60,728 bases of DNA. Source: an uncultured Candidatus Peribacteria bacterium. GTDB taxonomy: Bacteria; Patescibacteriota; Gracilibacteria; Absconditabacterales; Absconditicoccaceae. The position numbers and the translations under genes are program-made. The stretch is taken from the NCBI GenBank assembly GCA_964547365.1, contig CAZJMP010000001.1:1-60728 (forward strand). Direction: 5' to 3'. Below, one piece after another: positions 233 through 52,970 of this stretch (position 1 is the stretch's first letter; each line of letters begins with the position of its first letter). The notes beneath the pieces are model-generated. The model made no database searches. It was not told the DNA's origin and saw nothing but the letters and a program-made list of their open reading frames with translations.

Positions 233-243
233 CTGACTGTGAT

Positions 244-360
244 ACTATCCAGAGTGGACGATAGAGACTAGGCTCGTTAAGCGTCCCGGCAACCTTCCAG
301 AGGCAGGTAAACTTCCATTGGGAACGGTGCCAATTCCTACCCTCACGGGAAAGATATGAG
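244..360 (+). promoter_or_regulatory. SAM-I (S-box) riboswitch aptamer
   Basis: S-box core blocks in the canonical order: tatccAGAGtgg, CCCGGCAACC (285-294), GGTGCCAATTCC (326-337), P4 hairpin ccctcacggg, closing GAAAGATAtGAG. Lies directly 5' of metK. Confidence 0.75.
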
Positions 361-3359: not shown

Positions 3360-3470
3360 GATAATTTAGCATTTAGAAAAAATAAAAAAAATTTAGAAAA
3401 CAGAAATATTTCTAAATTTAGAAACATTCTAAATTCTTAATTCTAAATTTTAAATTCTAAATTTATTCTT
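3360..3470. repeat. Heptamer-type tandem/inverted repeats (TTAGAAT / ATTCTAA family)
   Basis: aatttag/catttag units, palindrome tttctaaatttagaaa, then attctaa attctta attctaa attttaa attctaa between folD and the next gene. Confidence 0.8.
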
Positions 3471-10785: not shown

Positions 10786-11511
10786 ATGTATCTCTATAGC
10801 TTCGATCGTTTTTTTGGCTTTGATAAGGTGTGTCTCTTGGGAGATTCTGGTAAGAAAAAAATCAAAGCGGGTGATCTGTTGGTCTTTTGAAACCAATATT
10901 TTCTCGCGTTGGGTGACAAGATATCATTTCCTGAACAGTATGGACACTTGGAATCTGTAAAAGCCGAATTTATGTACAAACAATTTTTAACACAATCTAC
11001 GCTGGATCTTCTTCATCGGATGGTGGAGACGTACTATACGACCTACAAATCTGTGATCAGACTTTTCGTCACGAATGAGATAGAGAAACTTCTTGAGCGT
11101 GAAGGAAAACTTAAAGCTCAAAGTTCAAAGCTCAAAGTTGTTGTGCAATCTTCAAGTTTTTCTTTGGCTGTTGAAGGGCAGACATTGATTGTCTTTCCTG
11201 ATTTATGGACGATGTTTAATTCTACTACAGAAGACTTTCGTGAAAGTGACGGAGTAGCGTTTTTGTCGGCGATGCATACCGAGAAACAGAAAGATATACA
11301 TCGATGGGAGATCAAAAAGTGAATGAAATCAGTCATATTATGTACGTATGCCGAGATATTTCAGGATTATCATAATTTAAAAAAAATCATATTCATCGAT
11401 CCGCATAAGCGATATTACGCCAATCAGCAGGACCCGAGATATAAGGTGGGGGATGTGCTGGAGGAGATGAAAAAACTGTATGGAGCTGAATTAGAAATTG
11501 TCTGAGTATAA
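10786..11511 (+). CDS. Truncated PriA-like protein lacking helicase catalytic motifs (241 aa)
   Basis: Collinear with the PriA N-terminus through motif II: TLDLLHRMVETYY, QTLIVFPDL, SVILCTYAEIF..LKKIIFIDPHKRYYANQQDPRYKVGDV. No GxGKT is present and DEEH is replaced by IDPH. Track ORFs 10909..11322 and 11323..11505 are in frame. Confidence 0.6.
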
Positions 11512-13094: not shown

Positions 13095-13860
13095 TCAAAT
13101 CATCGATCGTTTGCTCGGTGAACAACAGCAGAAAAAATCCGTTGAAATCGATTCGCTCGCGGAAGATTCTCAGGTATTGATCACGACGTCGAGAGTCGTC
13201 AGTATCAGATATAGGATTTATTTCGTCGTATTGTTGCTTGTCCTTGTGATTTTCGGCAATAATATTTTGTTGCCTGCGCGAGACGATTATCAATCGACCA
13301 AGATCGAGGTGAGCGATATTAATATGCAGATCACGAGTTTCGAAACAAAAAAACTTCAAGCTGATGCAGACAAAGCGTTGATCCAAAAGGTGGAGAATCA
13401 GCAAGATACGATCATCTCTTGTCTCAATACGAGGACCAATTGCAGCTCTATAGATGCATCGTTGAGGAATAACTTCTCGTTCGCGAGATCATATATCCAA
13501 CTCAATAATCTGACTGATCCGAAAATGTCCGTCAACGAGAAAGTGCTGCTTGCCAATATCAATGAGTATCTTTTGAGGGATCCTGCGACGAAAACTAAAA
13601 ACGGTGTTATCAACAAGATCGCTATAGGAGAACCTAAACAATTCTTCTGAAACCTCTACTACGTTCCGCTCAAGCTCAATATCACTTTCGATACCAAGGA
13701 TGTTCTGCTTTCTTTCATCGACAATGTGGAAAAAAGAGTCCTTGCTGATGAACATTATCGTGTCCTCTACAAGATCGACAAAGTGAATTACGATATCGCT
13801 AATTACGCTGAACAACAACAAGTTGACGTAGATTTGAATGCATATTATTATACCGACTAA
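13054..13860 (+). CDS. PilO-like membrane protein (268 aa)
   Basis: Track ORF 13054..13650 extends through TGA to TAA at 13858. One TM helix then a coiled coil. The call rests mainly on its position between pilN-like and pilC. Confidence 0.35.
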
Positions 13861-13911
13861 ATTTAGAATTTAGCAATATAAAAAATTTAGAATTTAAAAT
13901 TTAGCATATAT
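13861..13911. repeat. Heptamer repeat spacer (ATTTAGA family)
   Basis: atttaga atttagc aatataa aaaattt agaattt aaaattt agc. Confidence 0.7.
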
Positions 13912-15048: not shown

Positions 15049-15051
15049 AAT

Positions 15052-15170
15052 GAATTCAGAATGCAGAATTCAAAATTTAGAATGTAGAATTCAGAATTTA
15101 GAATGTAGAATTTAGAATGTAGAATGTAGAATTCAGAATTTAGAATTTAGAATGTAAAATTCAGAAATAG
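15052..15170. repeat. 17-unit tandem heptamer array GAAT[T/G][T/C]A
   Basis: gaattca gaatgca gaattca aaattta gaatgta gaattca gaattta gaatgta gaattta gaatgta gaatgta gaattca gaattta gaattta gaatgta aaattca gaaatag. Begins 3 nt after the pilC stop. Confidence 0.95.
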
Positions 15171-17053: not shown

Positions 17054-17100
17054 TGAGTTCAGAGTTTAGAATTCAGCGTGCAGAATTTAGAATCTAATAT
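17054..17100. repeat. Heptamer repeat spacer
   Basis: gttcaga gtttaga attcagc gtgcaga atttaga atctaat. Confidence 0.7.
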
Positions 17101-20185: not shown

Positions 20186-21388
20186 TTATTTCATATATCA
20201 ATTCAAGAACTCTTTTCGACTCATCGGCTTTTTCCCTTCCGGTTTGAGTTGAATATCGATGACCGCTGGATGCAATGCTTTGTCTTTGAATAATGGTACT
20301 TCGTCATTGCTATTGTACAATGGTTCACTGAGTTTCAATTCTTCTATGATAATCCTTTTGTTGTCGAGCATAAAATAGATTTTGGGTCGGAGATAGAATG
20401 CGCGATATTTGTCGTAGATCGTTTCGATAGTATCGTTTCGTGGATCGATCAGTCAGGATTCTTTTTCTATTTTTCCGCAATATGTTGCTTTGTGTTCTTG
20501 CTGTGGCACTTCTCAAAGGATTTTTTTTCAGAATTTCCACAACGTATCGTTCAAAAATTTCGGACCGATCTTTTTCATCTCTTCTATCAATTCTTTCGTT
20601 GTCCGAGAGAATGGTATTGTGAATCTGAGAATGTCGATCATATTCCCTGTGTCCATGGTTGCGTCCATTTTCATGATAGTGATTCCTGTCTCTTTATCGT
20701 TATTGAGCAACGCAGATTGGATAGGTGAGGCGCCGCGGTATTTTGGCAATATCGATCCATGAACGTTGATCGGCGCAACATTTGCGATATCCAAGATCTG
20801 TTGAGGAATGATTTTTCCATAGGCGATAACTACTAACATATCTGGATTTTTTTCTTGCAATCGCTGGGCAAATTCATGTCCTTCCTCTGATTTTTCGGGA
20901 TTCAATTTTGTCGGGGTTTGAATGAATTCAGAATTCAGAATTCAGAGTCTAGAATTTTTTAATTTTTTTCCGCATTGTTTAATGATATTCTCGCACATCT
21001 CCATTCATCTGCCTGCTGGCTTGTCGCATTGCGTTACGACGCCGACGACTTCGAATCTTTTATCGTTCGCTAAACGTTCGAGGAATGGTACGCCTATCGG
21101 TGCTGACGAGAAAAAGACGATTCTGTAGTGGGCTGGATCGTAGTGTTTGTGCTTGCTTGCGGTACAGTGCAAAACTCTATCTGTGGCATAAAATATCCCT
21201 GGTCGGAATCCATATCTTTTGAGAACTTGTGTACTGTATTTGCTACAATGCGGCTCATGTGCGCACACTCTTCCTTTGAGTCGAAACGATAATACTCCTT
21301 TGTCGGGAGATAATGTGTATTGGTAGAGCTTGATGAGTCGGATAGCCGGTTTAGCAAGAGCTTTATTTAATTTTCTGAAAAAATGCAT
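20186..21388 (-). CDS. fmt: YidD-like domain fused to methionyl-tRNA formyltransferase (400 aa)
   Basis: N-terminal LIKLYQYTLSP..CAHEPHCSKYS..GF.PG..ATDR.L.C (YidD/DUF37), then with no stop or start RIVFFSSAPIGVPFLERL..VVGVVTQCDKPAGRG, VVIAYGKIIP, INVHGSILPKYRGASPIQ, and the C-terminal Fmt domain. Three track ORFs lie in one frame. Confidence 0.8.
20924..20958. repeat. Heptamer array inside the fmt coding sequence
   Basis: gaattca gaattca gaattca gagtcta gaatttt. On the coding strand this reads ..KNSRLGILNSEFI.., an insertion relative to the usual Fmt GRG..linker. Confidence 0.85.
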
Positions 21389-22559: not shown

Positions 22560-23150
22560 ATGAGAAAAATTCTATTGATAGTCATAGTCTCATTATTGCG
22601 GATCTGAACTGCAAATGCTGGTCTGTCAGATTGATTTTTCTGTCAGGTGAGATCGACGGAAGTGGTTATTTCACTCAAGAAAGCTGGAGGATTTTACAGA
22701 TGTAGCGATACCGTTGCCTCTCTTGAGAAACTTATTATGCAAACAGCTAGAGATCTGATGAATATCCAGACATATATCAACAGTTGAAGAGATAGAGATT
22801 ATCGAATAGGCATCAAGACCGAGAAACTCTCTCTTTTGGAAAAATATCAGACTGCTAGAAAAAATATTCTCAAGAGTGTAGAGGCTTTTCAAAATAATCT
22901 TGTACAGAAATCCGTCTATTATTTTGTTCTTTCTATCACACCGTACAAACTCAACCTCCAGAGATCGTTGAACAAGATTGAAATGATGACCTGAACACTC
23001 CCTTCTTCATTGTCTTCTTATGCATCCTTGCTTAAGGGACAGATATCCACCATTACCTCGATTTCCACTACGCAAACGGTAGCCGAACTTATCCCTTTGC
23101 TGAAAAAATATATTTATCTCAAACATGAAATATCATGAAAATATGAATAA
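22560..23150 (+). CDS. Secreted hypothetical protein (196 aa, signal peptide)
   Basis: MRKILLIVIVSLLRIGTANA. The frame is open under table 25 only. Confidence 0.5.
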
Positions 23151-23965
23151 TCTCTTCATGATCCGAAACATTGACGCTCTTCAAGTTTTTGACGAAATAC
23201 GATCATGAGTATGTCGTATATTATGATGATCTCCATCGGCCGTATGGTGACAAAACATTCGATCAATCCTTGGAATTTGTAGAACAGGGCATGGCATATC
23301 TTGCGAAACAGAACGTTGACGTGCTCATCCTTCCTCCTATCTATGAACTTTATATAATGCAGAGTTCAAAATTCAGAATGCAGAAGAAAAATATTCTGCC
23401 ATTATTCACTTCTTATGTCCATGATTATTGTTTCACTCATTCGCTTGTGGGCAAATACTGAATACTCGGTGATTTTGCTGATATAGATAAGGCGCAATCA
23501 CTGCTTCAGAATTTGGAGAAAACCTATACACCGACCGCCAGTCAGAAAACTACCAGGAAGTTCCATTCACCGTTTGCTTATCGGGCCAAGGAAGTCCCTT
23601 TGCGAAAACATTATCTCACGGATCTTTCCTATTCCCATATCCTCGTCAACAAAATCATTAAATTTGATCTGAGATATTTCAAGGATGCAATGGTCGATAC
23701 GCTTATTCCTTTCAATTACGGATATTTCCATTACCAGCCCACGATTACCAAATTCCTTAATTTCAAAAAGATAAGATTCCATAAGTTAGAAAATCTTGAA
23801 CAGATTTTTCAGGGATTAACTATTGCGGACACATGACAAGGAACAACAACCTATTCTGTCACTGTGGCGTATACGTGACATCCAGAATTATTGAAAAGAG
23901 AAAAAAGAGTAATATGGCTTCTTCAGAGAGGAAAAAATGTAGAAATTCAACGAAAAAAAATTTAG
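23135..23965 (+). CDS. Glutamate racemase (MurI)-like protein with both catalytic Cys positions substituted
   Basis: MKIGIISSGSETLTLFKFL, YYDDLHRPYGDKT (compare GD.AR.PYG.KS). VDVLILPPIYE replaces ..ACNTA, and NYGYFHYQP replaces GCTHYP. Contains the heptamer array 23362-23389 (MQSSKFRMQKK). Confidence 0.5.
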
Positions 23966-24280: not shown

Positions 24281-24613
24281 TTATTTCTTGATCTTGACTG
24301 CAGCTCGTCCAACCAATTTCTTAGCAGGTTTTTTAGCAGCAGGTTTTTTTGCCTTCTTAACTTTTTTAGGAGCTTTTTTCTTGGCAACCTTCTTAACTTT
24401 TTTAGGAGCTTTTTTCTTAGCAACCTTCTTAGCTGGTTTCTTAGCAGCTTTCTTAGCTGGTTTTTTAGCAGCTTTTTTAGCAACTTTCTTTACAGCTTTT
24501 TTAGCAGGTTTCTTAGCAACCTTTTTAGCAGCTTTTTTAGCTGGTTTCTTAGCAACTTTTTTAGCAACTTTCTTTACAGCTTTTTTTGCAGCTGGTTTTT
24601 TCTTTGCAACCAT
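24281..24613 (-). CDS. Histone H1-like Lys/Ala-rich nucleoid protein (110 aa)
   Basis: MVAKKKPAAKKAVKKVAKKVAKKPAKKAAKK... AKKP/AKKV repeats. The start is set at the internal Met of track ORF 24281..24685. Confidence 0.7.
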   Translation of the reverse strand: MVAKKKPAAKKAVKKVAKKVAKKPAKKAAKKVAKKPAKKAVKKVAKKAAKKPAKKAAKKPAKKVAKKKAPKKVKKVAKKKAPKKVKKAKKPAAKKPAKKLVGRAAVKIKK

Positions 24614-24823
24614 TGTGAGTAGATAATAAGAGAATAAAAAAGAGATATAACACATCAGATATATGCTATTTAGTAGTAATTGCAAGAGAAAATGAATGAG
24701 AAGAAAATTTTTTTTTGTAATGTGTATCTATTGCAATCACTCTTTTTACCTAGTATTTCCTTGCTCTTATTTTTTTGCAAAAAAACCTTTTCAAAAAAAA
24801 TAAAAAAATAAAAAATTTTTTTT

Positions 24824-40217: not shown

Positions 40218-40259
40218 GAAAGCCTAAAGCTAAAAATTTAAAGCTTAACGTTCTAAGCA
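40218..40259. repeat. Heptamer repeat spacer, TAAAGCT variant
   Basis: gaaagcc taaagct aaaaatt taaagct taacgtt ctaagca. Confidence 0.7.
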
Positions 40260-40886: not shown

Positions 40887-42305
40887 ATGAATTTAACACT
40901 CAAAACATATATCAACGACAAGAAACTTGTTGCTAAGGATGTCGTGAAAGGCTGCATGGAGAAAGCAAAAACATTGAATGCTGACTATTTTTCCTTTGTG
41001 AGATTCCATGATGACTATGTAGCTGCCCATCTCGACGAATTTGCTTCGAAACCGTTGAAGGCTGCACCTATTTGAATTAAGGACATTATTCTGACTCAAG
41101 AGTATATTACTTCATGCTGATCGAAAATACTTGAAGAGTATGTAAGTCCGTATAGCGCTACCTGTTTTTTGAACTTAGAGAAAAACGGAGGATTGATGAT
41201 CGGAAAAACGAATATGGACGAATTTGCGATGGGTTCCTCTACAGAAACATCATATTTCGGCAAGACGAAAAATATCTACGGAAAAGATAGAAGCCCTGGA
41301 TGAAGTTCTGGATGATCTGCGGTTGCTGTCGCTTCATGAGCGTGTTTAGCTGCATTGGGAACTGATACCTGAGGAAGCATTCGTCAGCCTGCTGCATGGT
41401 GCGGTATTGTCTGAATGAAGCCTACCTATGGTATGGTTTCTCGTTATGGCGTACAATCTATGGCTTCGAGTCTAGATCAAGTTGGTGTCTTTACGAACAC
41501 TGTTGAGGATGCAGAGATCTTATTGAAAGCCATAGCTGGATTCGATCCAAAAGATTCACAGAGTGATCCGAGAGCGGATGAATTTGTAAATTCAGAATTC
41601 AAAATTCAGAGTTCAGAGATAAAAAAATTTAAAGTTTGAGTGCCGAAAGAAGCATTAGGAGAATGATTAGACCCTCAAATAAAGGCATTATTTCTTGCAA
41701 CTATTGATAAACTTCGTGCAAACGATATTGTAGTCGACGATATCTCATTGCCGATGATGGCGTATGCTGTTCCCATGTATTATACTTTGATGCCTGCGGA
41801 AGTAAGTACGAATTTGGCGAGATTTGACGGTATCAAATACTGACTTCAGTCTGATAGCCTGAATGCTGATACTATACAAAAATATTATGAAAACATTAGA
41901 TCCGAATGATTTGGTGATGAGGTCAAGAGAAGGATATTGCTCGGTACTTTTGTTTTGAGCTCAGCTAACTATGAAGGATATTATCTCAAGGCTCAGAAGG
42001 CAAGAGAGGAGTTGCAGGCAGAGTTTGACAAAACATTTGCAAACTATGATATTATTCTTACACCTACTACACCTGAGGCAGCATGGAAGCTCGGTGCAAA
42101 AAATGACGATCCTTTGAAAATGTATTTAGCTGATATGTACACTATCCCTGCCAATATGGCGTGATTGCCAGCCATGTCTGTTCCTATGGGTATGGTTGAG
42201 GATCAAGGGGAAAAGCTACCTGCATGAATACAACTTATGGCAGATAAGCGAGCTGAGAGCAAGCTTTTCGGGTTTGGTTGTTATCTCGAAAAATTACTTG
42301 CGTAA
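40887..42305 (+). CDS. gatA: Glutamyl-tRNA(Gln) amidotransferase subunit A
   Basis: Amidase signature [18 protein letters not shown][G]SSG[G]SAVAVAS (TGA at 41301 and 41313), GTDT[G][17 protein letters not shown]. Confidence 0.95.
41588..41618. repeat. Heptamer array inside the gatA coding sequence
   Basis: aaattca gaattca aaattca gagttca gag encodes [11 protein letters not shown] in a variable GatA linker. Confidence 0.85.
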
Positions 42306-42399: not shown

Positions 42400-42411
42400 A
42401 ATGAATACTAT

Positions 42412-42473
42412 GGGTGATTAGCTCAGTTGGCTACCCCGCAGCGAGTGCGGGGCTCGTTCCACTCGGAGCGTTT
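42412..42473 (+). other. Pseudo-copy of the tRNA-Val 5' part (nt 1-30) with a 32-nt insertion in the D-loop
   Basis: GGGTGATTAGCTCAGTTGGCTA (identical to tRNA-Val 1-22), then 32 nt (42434-42465, containing hairpin ccccgca-gcgag-tgcgggg), then GAGCGTTT (tRNA-Val 23-30). The 5' leader tactat is also duplicated. Confidence 0.7.
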
Positions 42474-42492: not shown

Positions 42493-42569
42493 GGGTGATT
42501 AGCTCAGTTGGCTAGAGCGTTTGCTTGACGTGCAAAAGGTCACAGGTTCGACTCCTGTATCACCCACCA
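42493..42569 (+). tRNA. tRNA-Val (anticodon GAC), CCA encoded
   Basis: GGGTGAT/ATCACCC acceptor, TTTGC-TTGACGT-GCAAA anticodon arm, ACAGG-TTCGACT-CCTGT T arm, ACCA 3' end. Confidence 0.9.
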
Positions 42570-47967: not shown

Positions 47968-48007
47968 GTGTGATTGATATGTGATAAAAGAAATTGCAGT
48001 TTGGATT

Positions 48008-48085
48008 CCGGCTAGATCCCGGCTAGATCCCGGCTGCAAAACTTAACGCCGGGATGACGAGCCGTGATGACGAGCCGGAATGACG
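48008..48085. repeat. GC-rich tandem/inverted repeat block
   Basis: ccggctagatc twice, then ccggctgc, a spacer, then gccgggatgacgag / ccgtgatgacgag / ccggaatgacg. A related motif lies at 60232-60263. Confidence 0.8.
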
Positions 48086-50850: not shown

Positions 50851-50878
50851 TTTTAGCTTGAAGCTTAAAGCGTAAAGC
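50851..50878. repeat. Heptamer repeat spacer, TAAAGC variant
   Basis: ttttagc ttgaagc ttaaagc gtaaagc, directly after the rpmE stop. Confidence 0.65.
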
Positions 50879-51623: not shown

Positions 51624-52892
51624 TTATAATAGTTTCAGCTCTTTCAATATCTTTTCGTACTTCGGGTAATCGGACCCGAATTTTTTTTGCATATATTCAG
51701 TGAGAATGTTCTTTCGGTCGGAGAATCAGGCTAATTGACTGGCATCGACTTTAAAACTGGAGAGCAGTTCGTCCAGATTCTCCGCGCTTTTTTTTAGCCT
51801 TAGATCTTTACAACTCTTTCTTAGATCAGCATCAACCACTTCATCTATCTTGTCGTAATCTATCTGATCGACTTGGAGTGTCAATGCTATATTCTCAAGA
51901 TTTTTTTTCTGATCCTCTTTGAACGTGATGTCTCGCGATGGACTTTGAAAATATCCTTTGTTCGCCTGATCGATCTTCTCTATCTCTTCAAGCAAGATTT
52001 TCTCTGTCAGGATTTCTTTACTTTGGACTAGGATCTGCGGGTTGATGGTAATTGGTAATGTGGTGATCTTTTTCGTTGTCGTATCATACTGGAAGATATA
52101 TTTATTTTGGTTCGTCTCTAGCGAGCTCGTTGATCGAACGCTTCCGGTGCAGAGATAATTCGTATGCGTGAATCCTTGGTGGAGATGTCCTGAGATGAAT
52201 CTCACATCCGGTAATTCCAAAAACTGCTCATTCAATGCGATGTCTTTGTAATTGAATTTCGATTTCTGACCTGGAAAAACCGTGTTGTTGAAATAATAAT
52301 GATGGAAGACATTGATTCACGGATATTTTTCCAGTTGTTCCGCCAAATACTTATTGATATATCATGAAAACGCTTCGTGTTTGTGATTTGATTTCTCGAG
52401 CAAAGCAGAAAAATCACTTATGGATTTTAGCTTTTCGTTCTTTGGCGTATAATCGAGCGTCTCGTTTTCGCCCTCCGAATTGGCGGGCAAGCCTGGTAAG
52501 AAGAACGGCATAAACAATATTTTTTCTCCTTCGATGGTTTCTATTCTTGGCTTGGTTATAAATTGTATATTTCATTCCTCTGAATTCTGACCTCTAAATT
52601 CTGAATTCTGAATTATATCAAAAGCCTTTTTAGCTTCTTCGAAGACAAAAGAATTTCCTAGTCGATCGTGATTTCCTGAAAGAATATAGATATGTTTTCA
52701 TTGAGCGAAGAGGTCGAGGAAGAGTCAGTAGAGCTGGAGCAATGCGTTCCTGTCGTAGGCGAAATGGTAAACATAGTCTCAGAGAAAAATGATATTCTTT
52801 TCATTCGGATACTGAGCAAAAATATCTTTTAGTTGTGCTAAAATCTTTTCGTGGTAACGTGCGTTGATATGAATATCTCCTACTAATAACAT
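51624..52892 (-). CDS. Calcineurin-like metallophosphoesterase (SbcD/Mre11-like), 422 aa
   Basis: LLVGDIHI, FLGDYV, LSGNHD, SGHLHQ in order. Track ORF 51726..52235 plus in-frame extensions through TGA codons. Confidence 0.7.
52581..52615. repeat. Heptamer array inside the phosphoesterase coding sequence
   Basis: tgaattc tgacctc taaattc tgaattc tgaatta. The coding strand reads IQNSEFRGQNSEE. Confidence 0.85.
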
Positions 52893-52921
52893 TACGAATT
52901 ACGGATTACGGATTACGAATT
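52891..52921. repeat. Tandem heptamer ATTACG[A/G], four units
   Basis: attacga attacgg attacgg attacga att, abutting the start codon of the phosphoesterase gene. Confidence 0.85.
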
Positions 52922-52970
52922 AAAATGACTCACCCATGATACTAATTCGATTTGTAAAAAAAAGGCAGAA

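Follow-up and report, generated by a model that had tools for sequence, protein, structure and literature searches.

Heptanucleotide repeat arrays in enzyme loops and intergenic spacers of a UGA-recoded Absconditabacterales bacterium

Contig CAZJMP010000001.1 of GenBank assembly GCA_964547365.1, from an uncultured Candidatus Peribacteria bacterium, carries short tandem arrays of a 7-nucleotide (7-nt) repeat both between its genes and within them. We analyzed a 60,728-nt stretch of this contig, called the window throughout. Eight of the arrays in the window belong to one heptamer family, RGAATKY; half are intergenic, and the other four lie inside genes, namely a gene for methionyl-tRNA formyltransferase (Fmt), gatA, a metallophosphoesterase gene, and a conserved open reading frame (ORF). 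Database homologs are labelled Absconditabacterales or candidate division SR1, and we use SR1 for this group. Loci and proteins collected for comparison are given by L and P numbers.

Heptamer arrays in genes and spacers

The window uses genetic code table 25, in which TGA is read as glycine, because TGA sits on conserved glycine residues and ORFs stay open only when TGA is a sense codon. TGA occurs at the invariant glycines of the GatA amidase signature PGGSSGGS and also in the LGDY motif of the metallophosphoesterase. Reading it as sense lengthens the longest ORF from 472 to 1121 amino acids (aa). The G+C content of the window is 38%, and on the plus strand TGA is about twice as frequent as TAA. 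Database annotation with code 11 fragments the array-bearing genes.

The fmt array lies in a fusion gene (20186-21388, minus strand) that matches Pfam families PF01809, PF00551, and PF02911 (YidD and Formyl_trans_N/C) and has homologs across Absconditabacterales. Fmt has YidD, a membrane protein insertion efficiency factor, joined in frame to its N-terminus; most of the SR1 homologs we retrieved keep this fusion, and some shorter ones (~320 aa) are without YidD. The array (20923-20958, plus strand) consists of TGAATTC, AGAATTC twice, AGAGTCT, and AGAATTT, and is antisense to the gene. The gene reads it on the minus strand as KNSRLG(TGA)ILNSEF (KNSRLGILNSEF), with TGA in frame.

The other three in-gene arrays are in the sense orientation and in frame. 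The gatA gene (40887-42305, plus strand) encodes subunit A of the Glu-tRNA(Gln) amidotransferase (Pfam Amidase, 4e-131; PDB GatA, 1e-125), and its array occupies 41587-41618 (plus strand; AATTCAG, AATTCAA, AATTCAG, AGTTCAG). The conserved SR1 ORF (23135-23965, plus strand) has orthologs in L001, L003, L004, L005, L165, and L167; its array (23354-23389, plus strand; CAGAGTT, CAAAATT, CAGAATG, CAGAAGA) encodes MQSSKFRMQKK. The calcineurin-like metallophosphoesterase gene (51624-52892, minus strand), identified by PF00149 (Metallophos) and by its homologs, contains an array at 52579-52616 (IQNSEFRGQNSEE; minus strand; ATTCAGA twice, ATTTAGA, GGTCAGA, ATTCAGA) that is in frame in the sense orientation and encodes QNSEFRGQNSEEG.

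A first, sequence-only reading of the window had placed arrays in these four genes, and their coordinates and peptides are confirmed once TGA is translated as glycine. It had also taken the recurring NSEF/IQ peptide for a by-product of the DNA repeat; this holds up, as the peptide runs through about 1.5 periods and the DNA through 4-5. The names that it gave to two of the proteins fared less evenly. "SbcD-like" is apt insofar as the protein is a metallophosphoesterase, and some JGI records call relatives in its cluster "SbcCD nuclease subunit". The name "MurI-like" for the conserved ORF has no support from Pfam, in which the ORF has no match even at E<=10. We retain both names as labels.

Of the four intergenic RGAATKY arrays, three stop 2-12 nt short of a start codon. 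One (3424-3465, minus strand; AGAATTT/AGAATTA/AAAATTT) stops a few nt before the TTG/GTG start of a gene for an HI0933-like flavoprotein, a second (13860-13909, plus strand; AATTTAG units) fills the spacer between the upstream ORF's stop codon and a T2SSF/PilC-like gene, leaving 2 nt ahead of the ATG, and a third (17054-17095, plus strand) extends from the stop codon of a pilin-like gene to 12 nt before the next ATG. Canonical Shine-Dalgarno sequences are absent where arrays abut start codons. The largest array, with ~16-17 units of AGAATTC/AGAATTT/AGAATGT (15051-15169, plus strand), begins after the stop codon of the PilC-like gene; a terminator-like hairpin follows, with a pilin gene downstream, and the array lies 86 nt from the start codon.

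RGAATKY is not the only heptamer family in the window. Units of the ATTACGR family (AATTCGT/AATCCGT; 52890-52923, minus strand) run directly into the ATG of the metallophosphoesterase gene, and the orthologous spacers in L204 and L164 contain other heptamers. A further family, AAAGCTY/AAGCTTA, which is palindromic with a HindIII-like core, occurs at 11113-11139, 40219-40248, and 50855-50878, and also in the MurI-like loop of L004. The latter two window arrays are intergenic; the first (plus strand; AAAGCTC/AAAGTTC) falls inside a 320-aa ORF without a Pfam match, where it would read KLKAQSSKLKV, and is possibly a fifth in-ORF array of a different family. Several families thus co-exist in one genome or lineage: the window has RGAATKY, AAAGCTY, and ATTACGR, and L005 has five families within 21 kb. 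In L005, an SR1-like genome, a 30-unit GAGTGTA/AAGTGTA array at 13235-13444 is directly followed by an AACTATA array. Therefore, arrays can grow much longer than those of the window.

How strong is the enrichment? A search for three consecutive RGAATKY units, allowing up to 3 mismatches, returned 37 matches in the window versus 0.89 in dinucleotide shuffles (maximum 4). The excess is specific to period 7. It accounts for 21 arrays in ~326 kb of SR1 DNA, against 0-3 for each of the remaining periods between 5 and 12; Markov simulations gave 0. Among 23 strict arrays, 14 are intergenic or at a gene edge, an excess outside genes, and 9 are in ORFs, in DNA that is ~12% non-coding by rough ORF calls under code 25, which also define the genes of the other loci. 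The hexamer GAATTC occurs 45 times in the window against ~20 expected from a hand estimate of composition, and ~20 of the copies are in arrays by eye. As a signal of restriction-site avoidance or enrichment, GAATTC shows nothing notable beyond the arrays in this by-eye tally. TTC (53%) and CAG (45%) are not rare codons here, and codon usage is a powerless test of constraint at the DNA level.

Conserved sites with changing units

The in-gene arrays occupy loops. In alignments, the Fmt and GatA arrays coincide with gapped loop regions of solved structures, and in an AlphaFold2 model of Fmt the array peptide (residues 145-155) is a coil that links a helix to a strand and has a predicted local distance difference test score of 63-72 versus ~90 around it. 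The Fmt loop is ~9 aa longer than in solved Fmt structures, and the GatA loop just 3-4 aa longer than in solved GatA structures. These comparisons bear out the suggestion from sequence that the arrays sit in variable linkers and are specific to the lineage when set against the wider families. The companion claim that they are insertions stands in part: there is a net gain in Fmt, and the loop is 8-13 aa shorter in SbcD-like relatives that are 45-50% identical. The gain in GatA is so small that its array largely replaces a pre-existing linker, and is not a clean insertion.

Across SR1, the same codon positions carry the same array, an array of another heptamer family (AGTGAAC, AATGATA, AATTGAA, AAGCTTA), or a non-repeat sequence. 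This exchange of units at one site is seen at the DNA level in GatA, the SbcD-like gene, and the MurI-like ORF, and the length of the in-gene array segment stays near 33-36 nt. The DNA-level ortholog sample is small: alignment of Fmt against genome contigs gave at least ~7 SR1 loci, and alignment of GatA against metagenome contigs at least ~3.

The stretch of Fmt that separates "CGKKL" from "I.TPTKLNPEK" is as short as 3 aa and as long as 26 aa among 46 SR1 homologs. The fmt genes of L001 and L003, which are 77-78% identical to that of the window in nt sequence, have a 5-unit array of the same length at the same site. L002, which is the closest relative at 84% nt identity, has another sequence in place of the ~55-nt linker, with ~20% identity there versus ~90% in the flanks. 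The loop also varies in larger ways. Some SR1 lineages have a whole domain in it, either a PF06821 serine hydrolase or an endonuclease-like PF04480 (DUF559)/PF18741 domain; these proteins are 530-627 aa long (L008 10001-11767, P0021, P0022, P0027, P0033, P0040). Beyond the loop, a patchily distributed in-frame insert of 7-8 aa, PAPYGATG, follows KLNPEK in P0011, P0030, and P0039.

The GatA segment between "ADEFV" and "KKFKVGVP" is 11-12 aa long and differs by lineage. Variants include NSEFRIQNSEL, SEQWTVNSEQC, NDKWWMIDDKLI, NWKLEIENWKL, NDQSQITNDQC, and the non-repeat NDKKNLDEKSV. The corresponding DNA in the contigs we fetched has, at the same position, AATTCAG x4, AGTGAAC x4.5, AATGATA x4, or AAATTGA x4. 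Near-perfect arrays of the AGTGAAC type are found in GatA lineages as distant as 63% identity, and array types are scattered over a neighbor-joining tree, which is poorly resolved and unfit for counting gains and losses. The scatter of types together with near-perfect arrays at 63% identity makes simple decay of one ancient insertion an unsuitable account. The GatA array of P0151/P0153 contains an insert, SPSTSRRI.

Most relatives of the SbcD-like protein at 60-85% identity retain the loop peptide QN[AS]EF[RIK].QN, which thus persists to ~60% identity. Two clusters have ENWKLEIENW instead (P0243/P0276), and L166 has four copies of an octamer, ATTGAAAC. P0292/P0294 have the inserts LSASTQG/LTAGRQG inside the array. 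The 7-8 aa inserts of the Fmt, GatA, and SbcD-like proteins may belong to the same exchange process. At the MurI-like loop, CAGAATT arrays are present in the window and L167, GCTTAAA in L004, and TTGAAAA in L005; the ORFs of L001 and L003 have no array there. Intergenic spacers behave as the genes do: in orthologous spacers the site is kept and the heptamer unit changes.

On shorter time scales the arrays are stable. In ten clusters at >=90% identity, drawn from many metagenomes, the full-length members of each cluster all share one linker length, and unit number is unchanged in orthologs at 77-85% identity. The arrays had been described from sequence as possibly frozen; this is accurate within the 90% clusters but not across SR1 lineages, where the loop positions carry different heptamer families or non-repeat sequence.

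An apparent natural split of gatA illustrates what the loss of units would do. The gatA of L203 is 91.3% identical to that of L204/L205, and the sole indel is a loss of 14 nt, exactly two heptamer units, in the array. The resulting frameshift leaves two overlapping ORFs (L203 2310-3732), one of 241 aa and one of 243 aa, that are otherwise undamaged; the second begins at an ATG just upstream of the array. Thus, slippage probably does occur, and the frameshift hazard that had been predicted from the 7-nt unit is real, though rare.

Sequence is also shared between arrays in unrelated genes. In GCA_964494005.1, the Fmt and GatA arrays have in common a 50-nt composite with 3 mismatches (AAATTGAAAACAAAATGAAATGAAGTC..CAAG.CAGGATTGAAAATTG). 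An 18-nt segment, Insert A (C[GT]TGTCCTCGAAGGAGGG), is common to the Fmt of this genome (L167) and the GatA of another (L166). These composite inserts common to Fmt and GatA indicate that sequence moves between arrays at unrelated loci. Insert A and the 30-nt Insert B occur inside arrays of unrelated genes at L166 2490-2560, L167 10480-10600, and L206 6700-6790, and a search of all collected loci for the two inserts gave no matches beyond the true copies. Insert A can form a 5-bp hairpin with a GAAG loop. A diverged copy in the SbcD-like loop of L207 keeps the stem through a compensatory change, from TCCTC/GAGGG to TCCAC/GTGGA, and conserves the GAAG loop. With three copies, this pattern is no more than suggestive.

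The recoding of UGA bears directly on which arrays can be translated. On one strand, the GAATTCA repeat reads GAA TTC AGA ATT CAG AAT TCA, and on the other TGA ATT CTG AAT TCT GAA TTC; because TGA is glycine, such arrays are open in all six frames. The ortholog arrays AGTGAAC, AATGATR, and AAATTGA all contain in-frame TGA, which would be stops under the standard code, and heptamers with TGA can sit in ORFs because the code is recoded, a point that the sequence-only reading had missed. In-gene arrays have no TAG-creating units (AGAATTT, AGAATGT) on their sense strand; in the intergenic arrays these units predominate.

Several features of the window are separate from the heptamers. An Rfam scan found four tRNAs and a SAM riboswitch only, with no family overlapping the arrays. 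The riboswitch (RF00162, barely at the gathering score; 242-360, plus strand) is upstream of a metK-like gene (433-1557). A Lys/Ala-rich (AKKAVKKV), histone-like, low-complexity protein at 24281-24655 (minus strand) is encoded by 12-nt and 36-nt tandem repeats (24352-24599), and the orthologous region of L001 has similar tandem repeats. An intergenic region at 48004-48085 contains, on the plus strand, three tandem 11-mers (GATCCCGGCTA), 12 nt, and three tandem 13-mers (GCCGGGATGACGA); the cores of the 11-mer and 13-mer are mutually reverse-complementary and unrelated to the heptamers. At 42411-42470, a copy of the first ~27 nt of tRNA-Val(GAC), whose gene lies at 42493-42569, is followed by a G+C-rich hairpin (CCCCGCAGCGAGTGCGGGG). 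This partial duplication may have been left behind by an integration or rearrangement event at the tRNA gene.

Explanations for the arrays

What process puts the same kind of repeat into spacers and enzyme loops alike? We favor, with a probability of roughly 0.6, the view that these are dispersed heptanucleotide simple sequence repeats (SSRs) akin to the short tandemly repeated repetitive (STRR) sequences and TAACTGA repeats of other bacteria, spread lineage-wide in SR1/Absconditabacterales and tolerated in permissive loops. A DNA-level process with a strict 7-nt register would create and spread the arrays, probably through replication slippage combined with non-allelic recombination or gene conversion between arrays. 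Arrays would then persist where they are tolerated. Short spacers between genes would be one such place, with arrays often occupying all the room up to the start codon. A few permissive surface loops of proteins would be the other, where arrays could survive only as in-frame, stop-free segments of ~33-36 nt, and code 25 would widen what is tolerated by relaxing the stop filter. The in-gene arrays would simply encode a low-complexity, disordered linker, a peptide that is presumably neutral. Segments would remain stable within a species, be overwritten by other heptamer families or decay over longer times, and in rare cases frameshift their gene by slippage.

Some of our observations weigh against this reading. 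Slippage alone fails to explain how unrelated families reoccupy the same codons at preserved length, or why AGTGAAC-type GatA peptides are near-perfect at 63% identity; slippage by itself is therefore insufficient, and maintenance, selection, or a targeted process is implied. Additionally, the SbcD-like peptide QNAEFRIQN matches the catalytic core in its degree of conservation down to ~60% identity, and the peptide or its DNA could have gained a function. Unit type is partly genome-specific, and one contig combines a GAATTCA-type Fmt with an AGTGAAC-type GatA; thus, any genome-wide homogenization is incomplete. Finally, the patchiness of array types in GatA is read from a poorly resolved neighbor-joining tree.

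An unlikely alternative is that the arrays are functional cis-elements, bound on DNA or mRNA by some abundant protein; S1, a Csp, a nucleoid protein, or a regulator like CsrA would be examples. They would act chiefly where translation initiates, and the copies in genes would be kept for a role within the mRNA, such as pausing, internal initiation, or co-translational folding. The arrays do abut start codons that have no canonical Shine-Dalgarno sequence, and MacGregor proposed a similar role for TAACTGA repeats (PMC4679880). Sites are conserved across lineages in both genes and spacers despite the change of unit, arrays remain recognizable where neutral sequence should have decayed, and the Insert A hairpin has its one compensatory stem change and conserved GAAG loop. 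However, at least five unrelated units occupy the same sites, which is hard to fit to one sequence-specific binder, and many lineages have no repeat at these sites and an unchanged linker length. No Rfam family falls on the arrays, and 2 of the 8 are antisense to the local gene. We rejected hairpin formation as a general mechanism: the palindromic GAATTCA and AAGCTTA fold, and AGTGAAC and AAATTGA do not. Folding is thus confined to palindromic units, and structure is not the common denominator.

A more speculative possibility, and a less probable one, is an active register-7 repeat-propagating system that would repeatedly overwrite particular permissive sites, internal loops of essential enzymes among them, with the current heptamer family and move small hairpin modules such as Insert A between genes. 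Such a system could take the form of templated gene conversion, a dedicated recombinase, or polymerase-driven copying. If it existed, the arrays would be a new kind of in-frame mobile microsatellite or a cis-regulatory platform inside ORFs, and they could let genes split and re-initiate at the loop, as in the two-ORF gatA.

Less probable again is a discrete mobile element, either one resembling a miniature inverted-repeat transposable element or a recombinase-driven "mobile microsatellite", that pastes cassettes at preferred sites, loops included. Its appeal lies in the occurrence of one unit family at eight loci in one 60-kb window, in the near-identical Inserts A and B in unrelated genes and different genomes, and in the sharp segmental replacement in L002 fmt; the Fmt loop, moreover, takes whole domains, a DUF559-type endonuclease among them. 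Yet at the few boundaries examined (window versus L002, L084) the segment is exchanged at equal length or raggedly, with no terminal inverted repeats or target-site duplications, and no association with a transposase or recombinase was noticed in the loci examined, although no search was aimed at one. In GatA, one segment has taken the place of another of the same length, with no insertion, the arrays include many unit types and one octamer, and ordinary non-allelic gene conversion accounts equally well for the shared inserts.

The sequence-only reading had also raised contingency switches, in which gain or loss of a unit would toggle fmt, gatA, and other genes or tune the genes downstream of intergenic arrays. 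We regard such phase variation as very unlikely. In its favor are a unit length that 3 does not divide, the known phase variation of the H. influenzae HMW adhesins through heptamer SSRs (PMC8262952), and the position of the long 15051-15169 array ahead of pilin genes, which are a classic phase-variable class. The L203 gatA, frameshifted by the loss of exactly two units, also counts for it. However, both halves of that gene are intact ORFs and the second has its own ATG, which looks like a tolerated split rather than an off-state. The in-gene arrays have just 3-5 imperfect units, their number is invariant in the full-length members of the ten 90% clusters and in orthologs at 77-85% identity, and the affected genes are housekeeping genes. 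These observations argue against a switch function for the in-gene arrays.

That the repeats are an artefact of misassembly or mis-annotation and not truly inside functional genes has a negligible probability: the window is a metagenome-type contig and code-11 annotations fragment these genes, but independent assemblies from NCBI, JGI, ENA, and Logan show the same arrays at identical codon positions, the frames stay open through them under code 25, and the flanking domains are intact, with end-to-end matches to Pfam and PDB families.

Significance and relation to known repeats

Why do these arrays matter? UGA-to-glycine reassignment changes which selfish or slippage-born repeats survive inside genes, and therefore housekeeping enzymes of a candidate phylum come to carry repeat-encoded loops. 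In effect, the loops are a naturally made list of places where Fmt, GatA, and the metallophosphoesterase permit insertions, and the Fmt site accepts whole domains. A conserved site with a changing unit and shared sequences is also a tractable case for concerted evolution of bacterial microsatellites. In practical terms, the arrays and the recoded TGA together cause fragmented or frameshifted gene calls in SR1 metagenome-assembled genomes, and the arrays could serve as lineage markers.

Our literature searches found no report of heptamer repeats in Absconditabacteria or Gracilibacteria. What is already described in bacteria is an excess of heptamer SSRs, STRRs, and the GGGAATC and TAACTGA repeats (PMC4692102, PMC4679880). 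A general over-representation of heptanucleotide SSRs was reported by Mrazek (2007), as cited in PMC4692102.

Contingency loci resemble the SR1 arrays in having a unit length that is not divisible by 3, so that slippage frameshifts the gene, as it has once here (L203). Such loci have long, perfect arrays that are polymorphic within strains and belong to genes for surface or virulence traits, whereas SR1 arrays are short, imperfect, and invariant within clusters. Examples are the 7-bp ATCTTTC repeats in the hmw promoters of H. influenzae and the tetranucleotide repeats in lipopolysaccharide genes.

The GGGAATC and GGGGA(T/C)T heptamers of Xanthomonas and Nostoc are G-rich, quadruplex-forming, and intergenic (Rehm 2015, PMC4692102). 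They are alike in the excess of period 7 only, and occupy the same intergenic positions in relatives with variable length and sequence (PMC4692102). SR1 units, in contrast, are A+T-rich, and the arrays invade coding sequence too.

The TAACTGA repeats of marine Beggiatoaceae, Cyanobacteria, and Bacteroidetes are closer. They occur in 2-6 copies, mostly a few nt upstream of starts (MacGregor 2015, PMC4679880), and often stand in for a recognizable Shine-Dalgarno sequence (PMC4679880). In-ORF copies are a minority, in the stop-free orientation only, and encode a peptide with a 7-aa period (PMC4679880). SR1 arrays likewise end near start codons, and some are inside ORFs. However, Beggiatoaceae have one dominant unit and few related heptamers, with in-ORF copies at protein termini or in hypothetical proteins (PMC4679880), whereas SR1 has many unit families in internal loops of Fmt, GatA, and other proteins, and TGA, a stop in the hosts of TAACTGA repeats, is a sense codon in SR1. 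The SR1 units are RGAATKY, AAGCTTA, AGTGAAC, AATGATA, and AATTGAA rather than a single dominant TAACTGA heptamer.

The STRRs of the heterocystous cyanobacteria Calothrix, Nostoc, and Anabaena are similar in that several 7-nt families co-exist as short arrays dispersed at many loci (literature cited in PMC4692102). Cyanobacterial arrays are mostly intergenic, and those of SR1 are enriched in spacers and at gene edges (14 of 23). A scan of viral contigs for three AGAATTY units gave 35 matches with G+C contents of 0.19-0.64, none of them clearly SR1. Contigs L190, L201, L175, and L195 from IMG/VR (3300021392_000010/12, 3300022536_000104; G+C 0.40-0.46) are dense in many heptamer families, among them AGAATTT, AATTAGC, AATGAGT, and AGGAGGC. 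These contigs look STRR-like, and their host is possibly cyanobacterial or they may derive from cyanophage.

SR1 differs from the STRR-bearing cyanobacteria in being a UGA-recoded bacterium of the candidate phyla radiation with A+T-rich units. Moreover, 9 of 23 SR1 arrays are inside ORFs, and orthologous sites carry different families. What sets SR1 apart is a recoded host with a high share of its arrays within internal loops of conserved enzymes, along with turnover that conserves the site and varies the unit, and composite inserts that are shared by unrelated genes.

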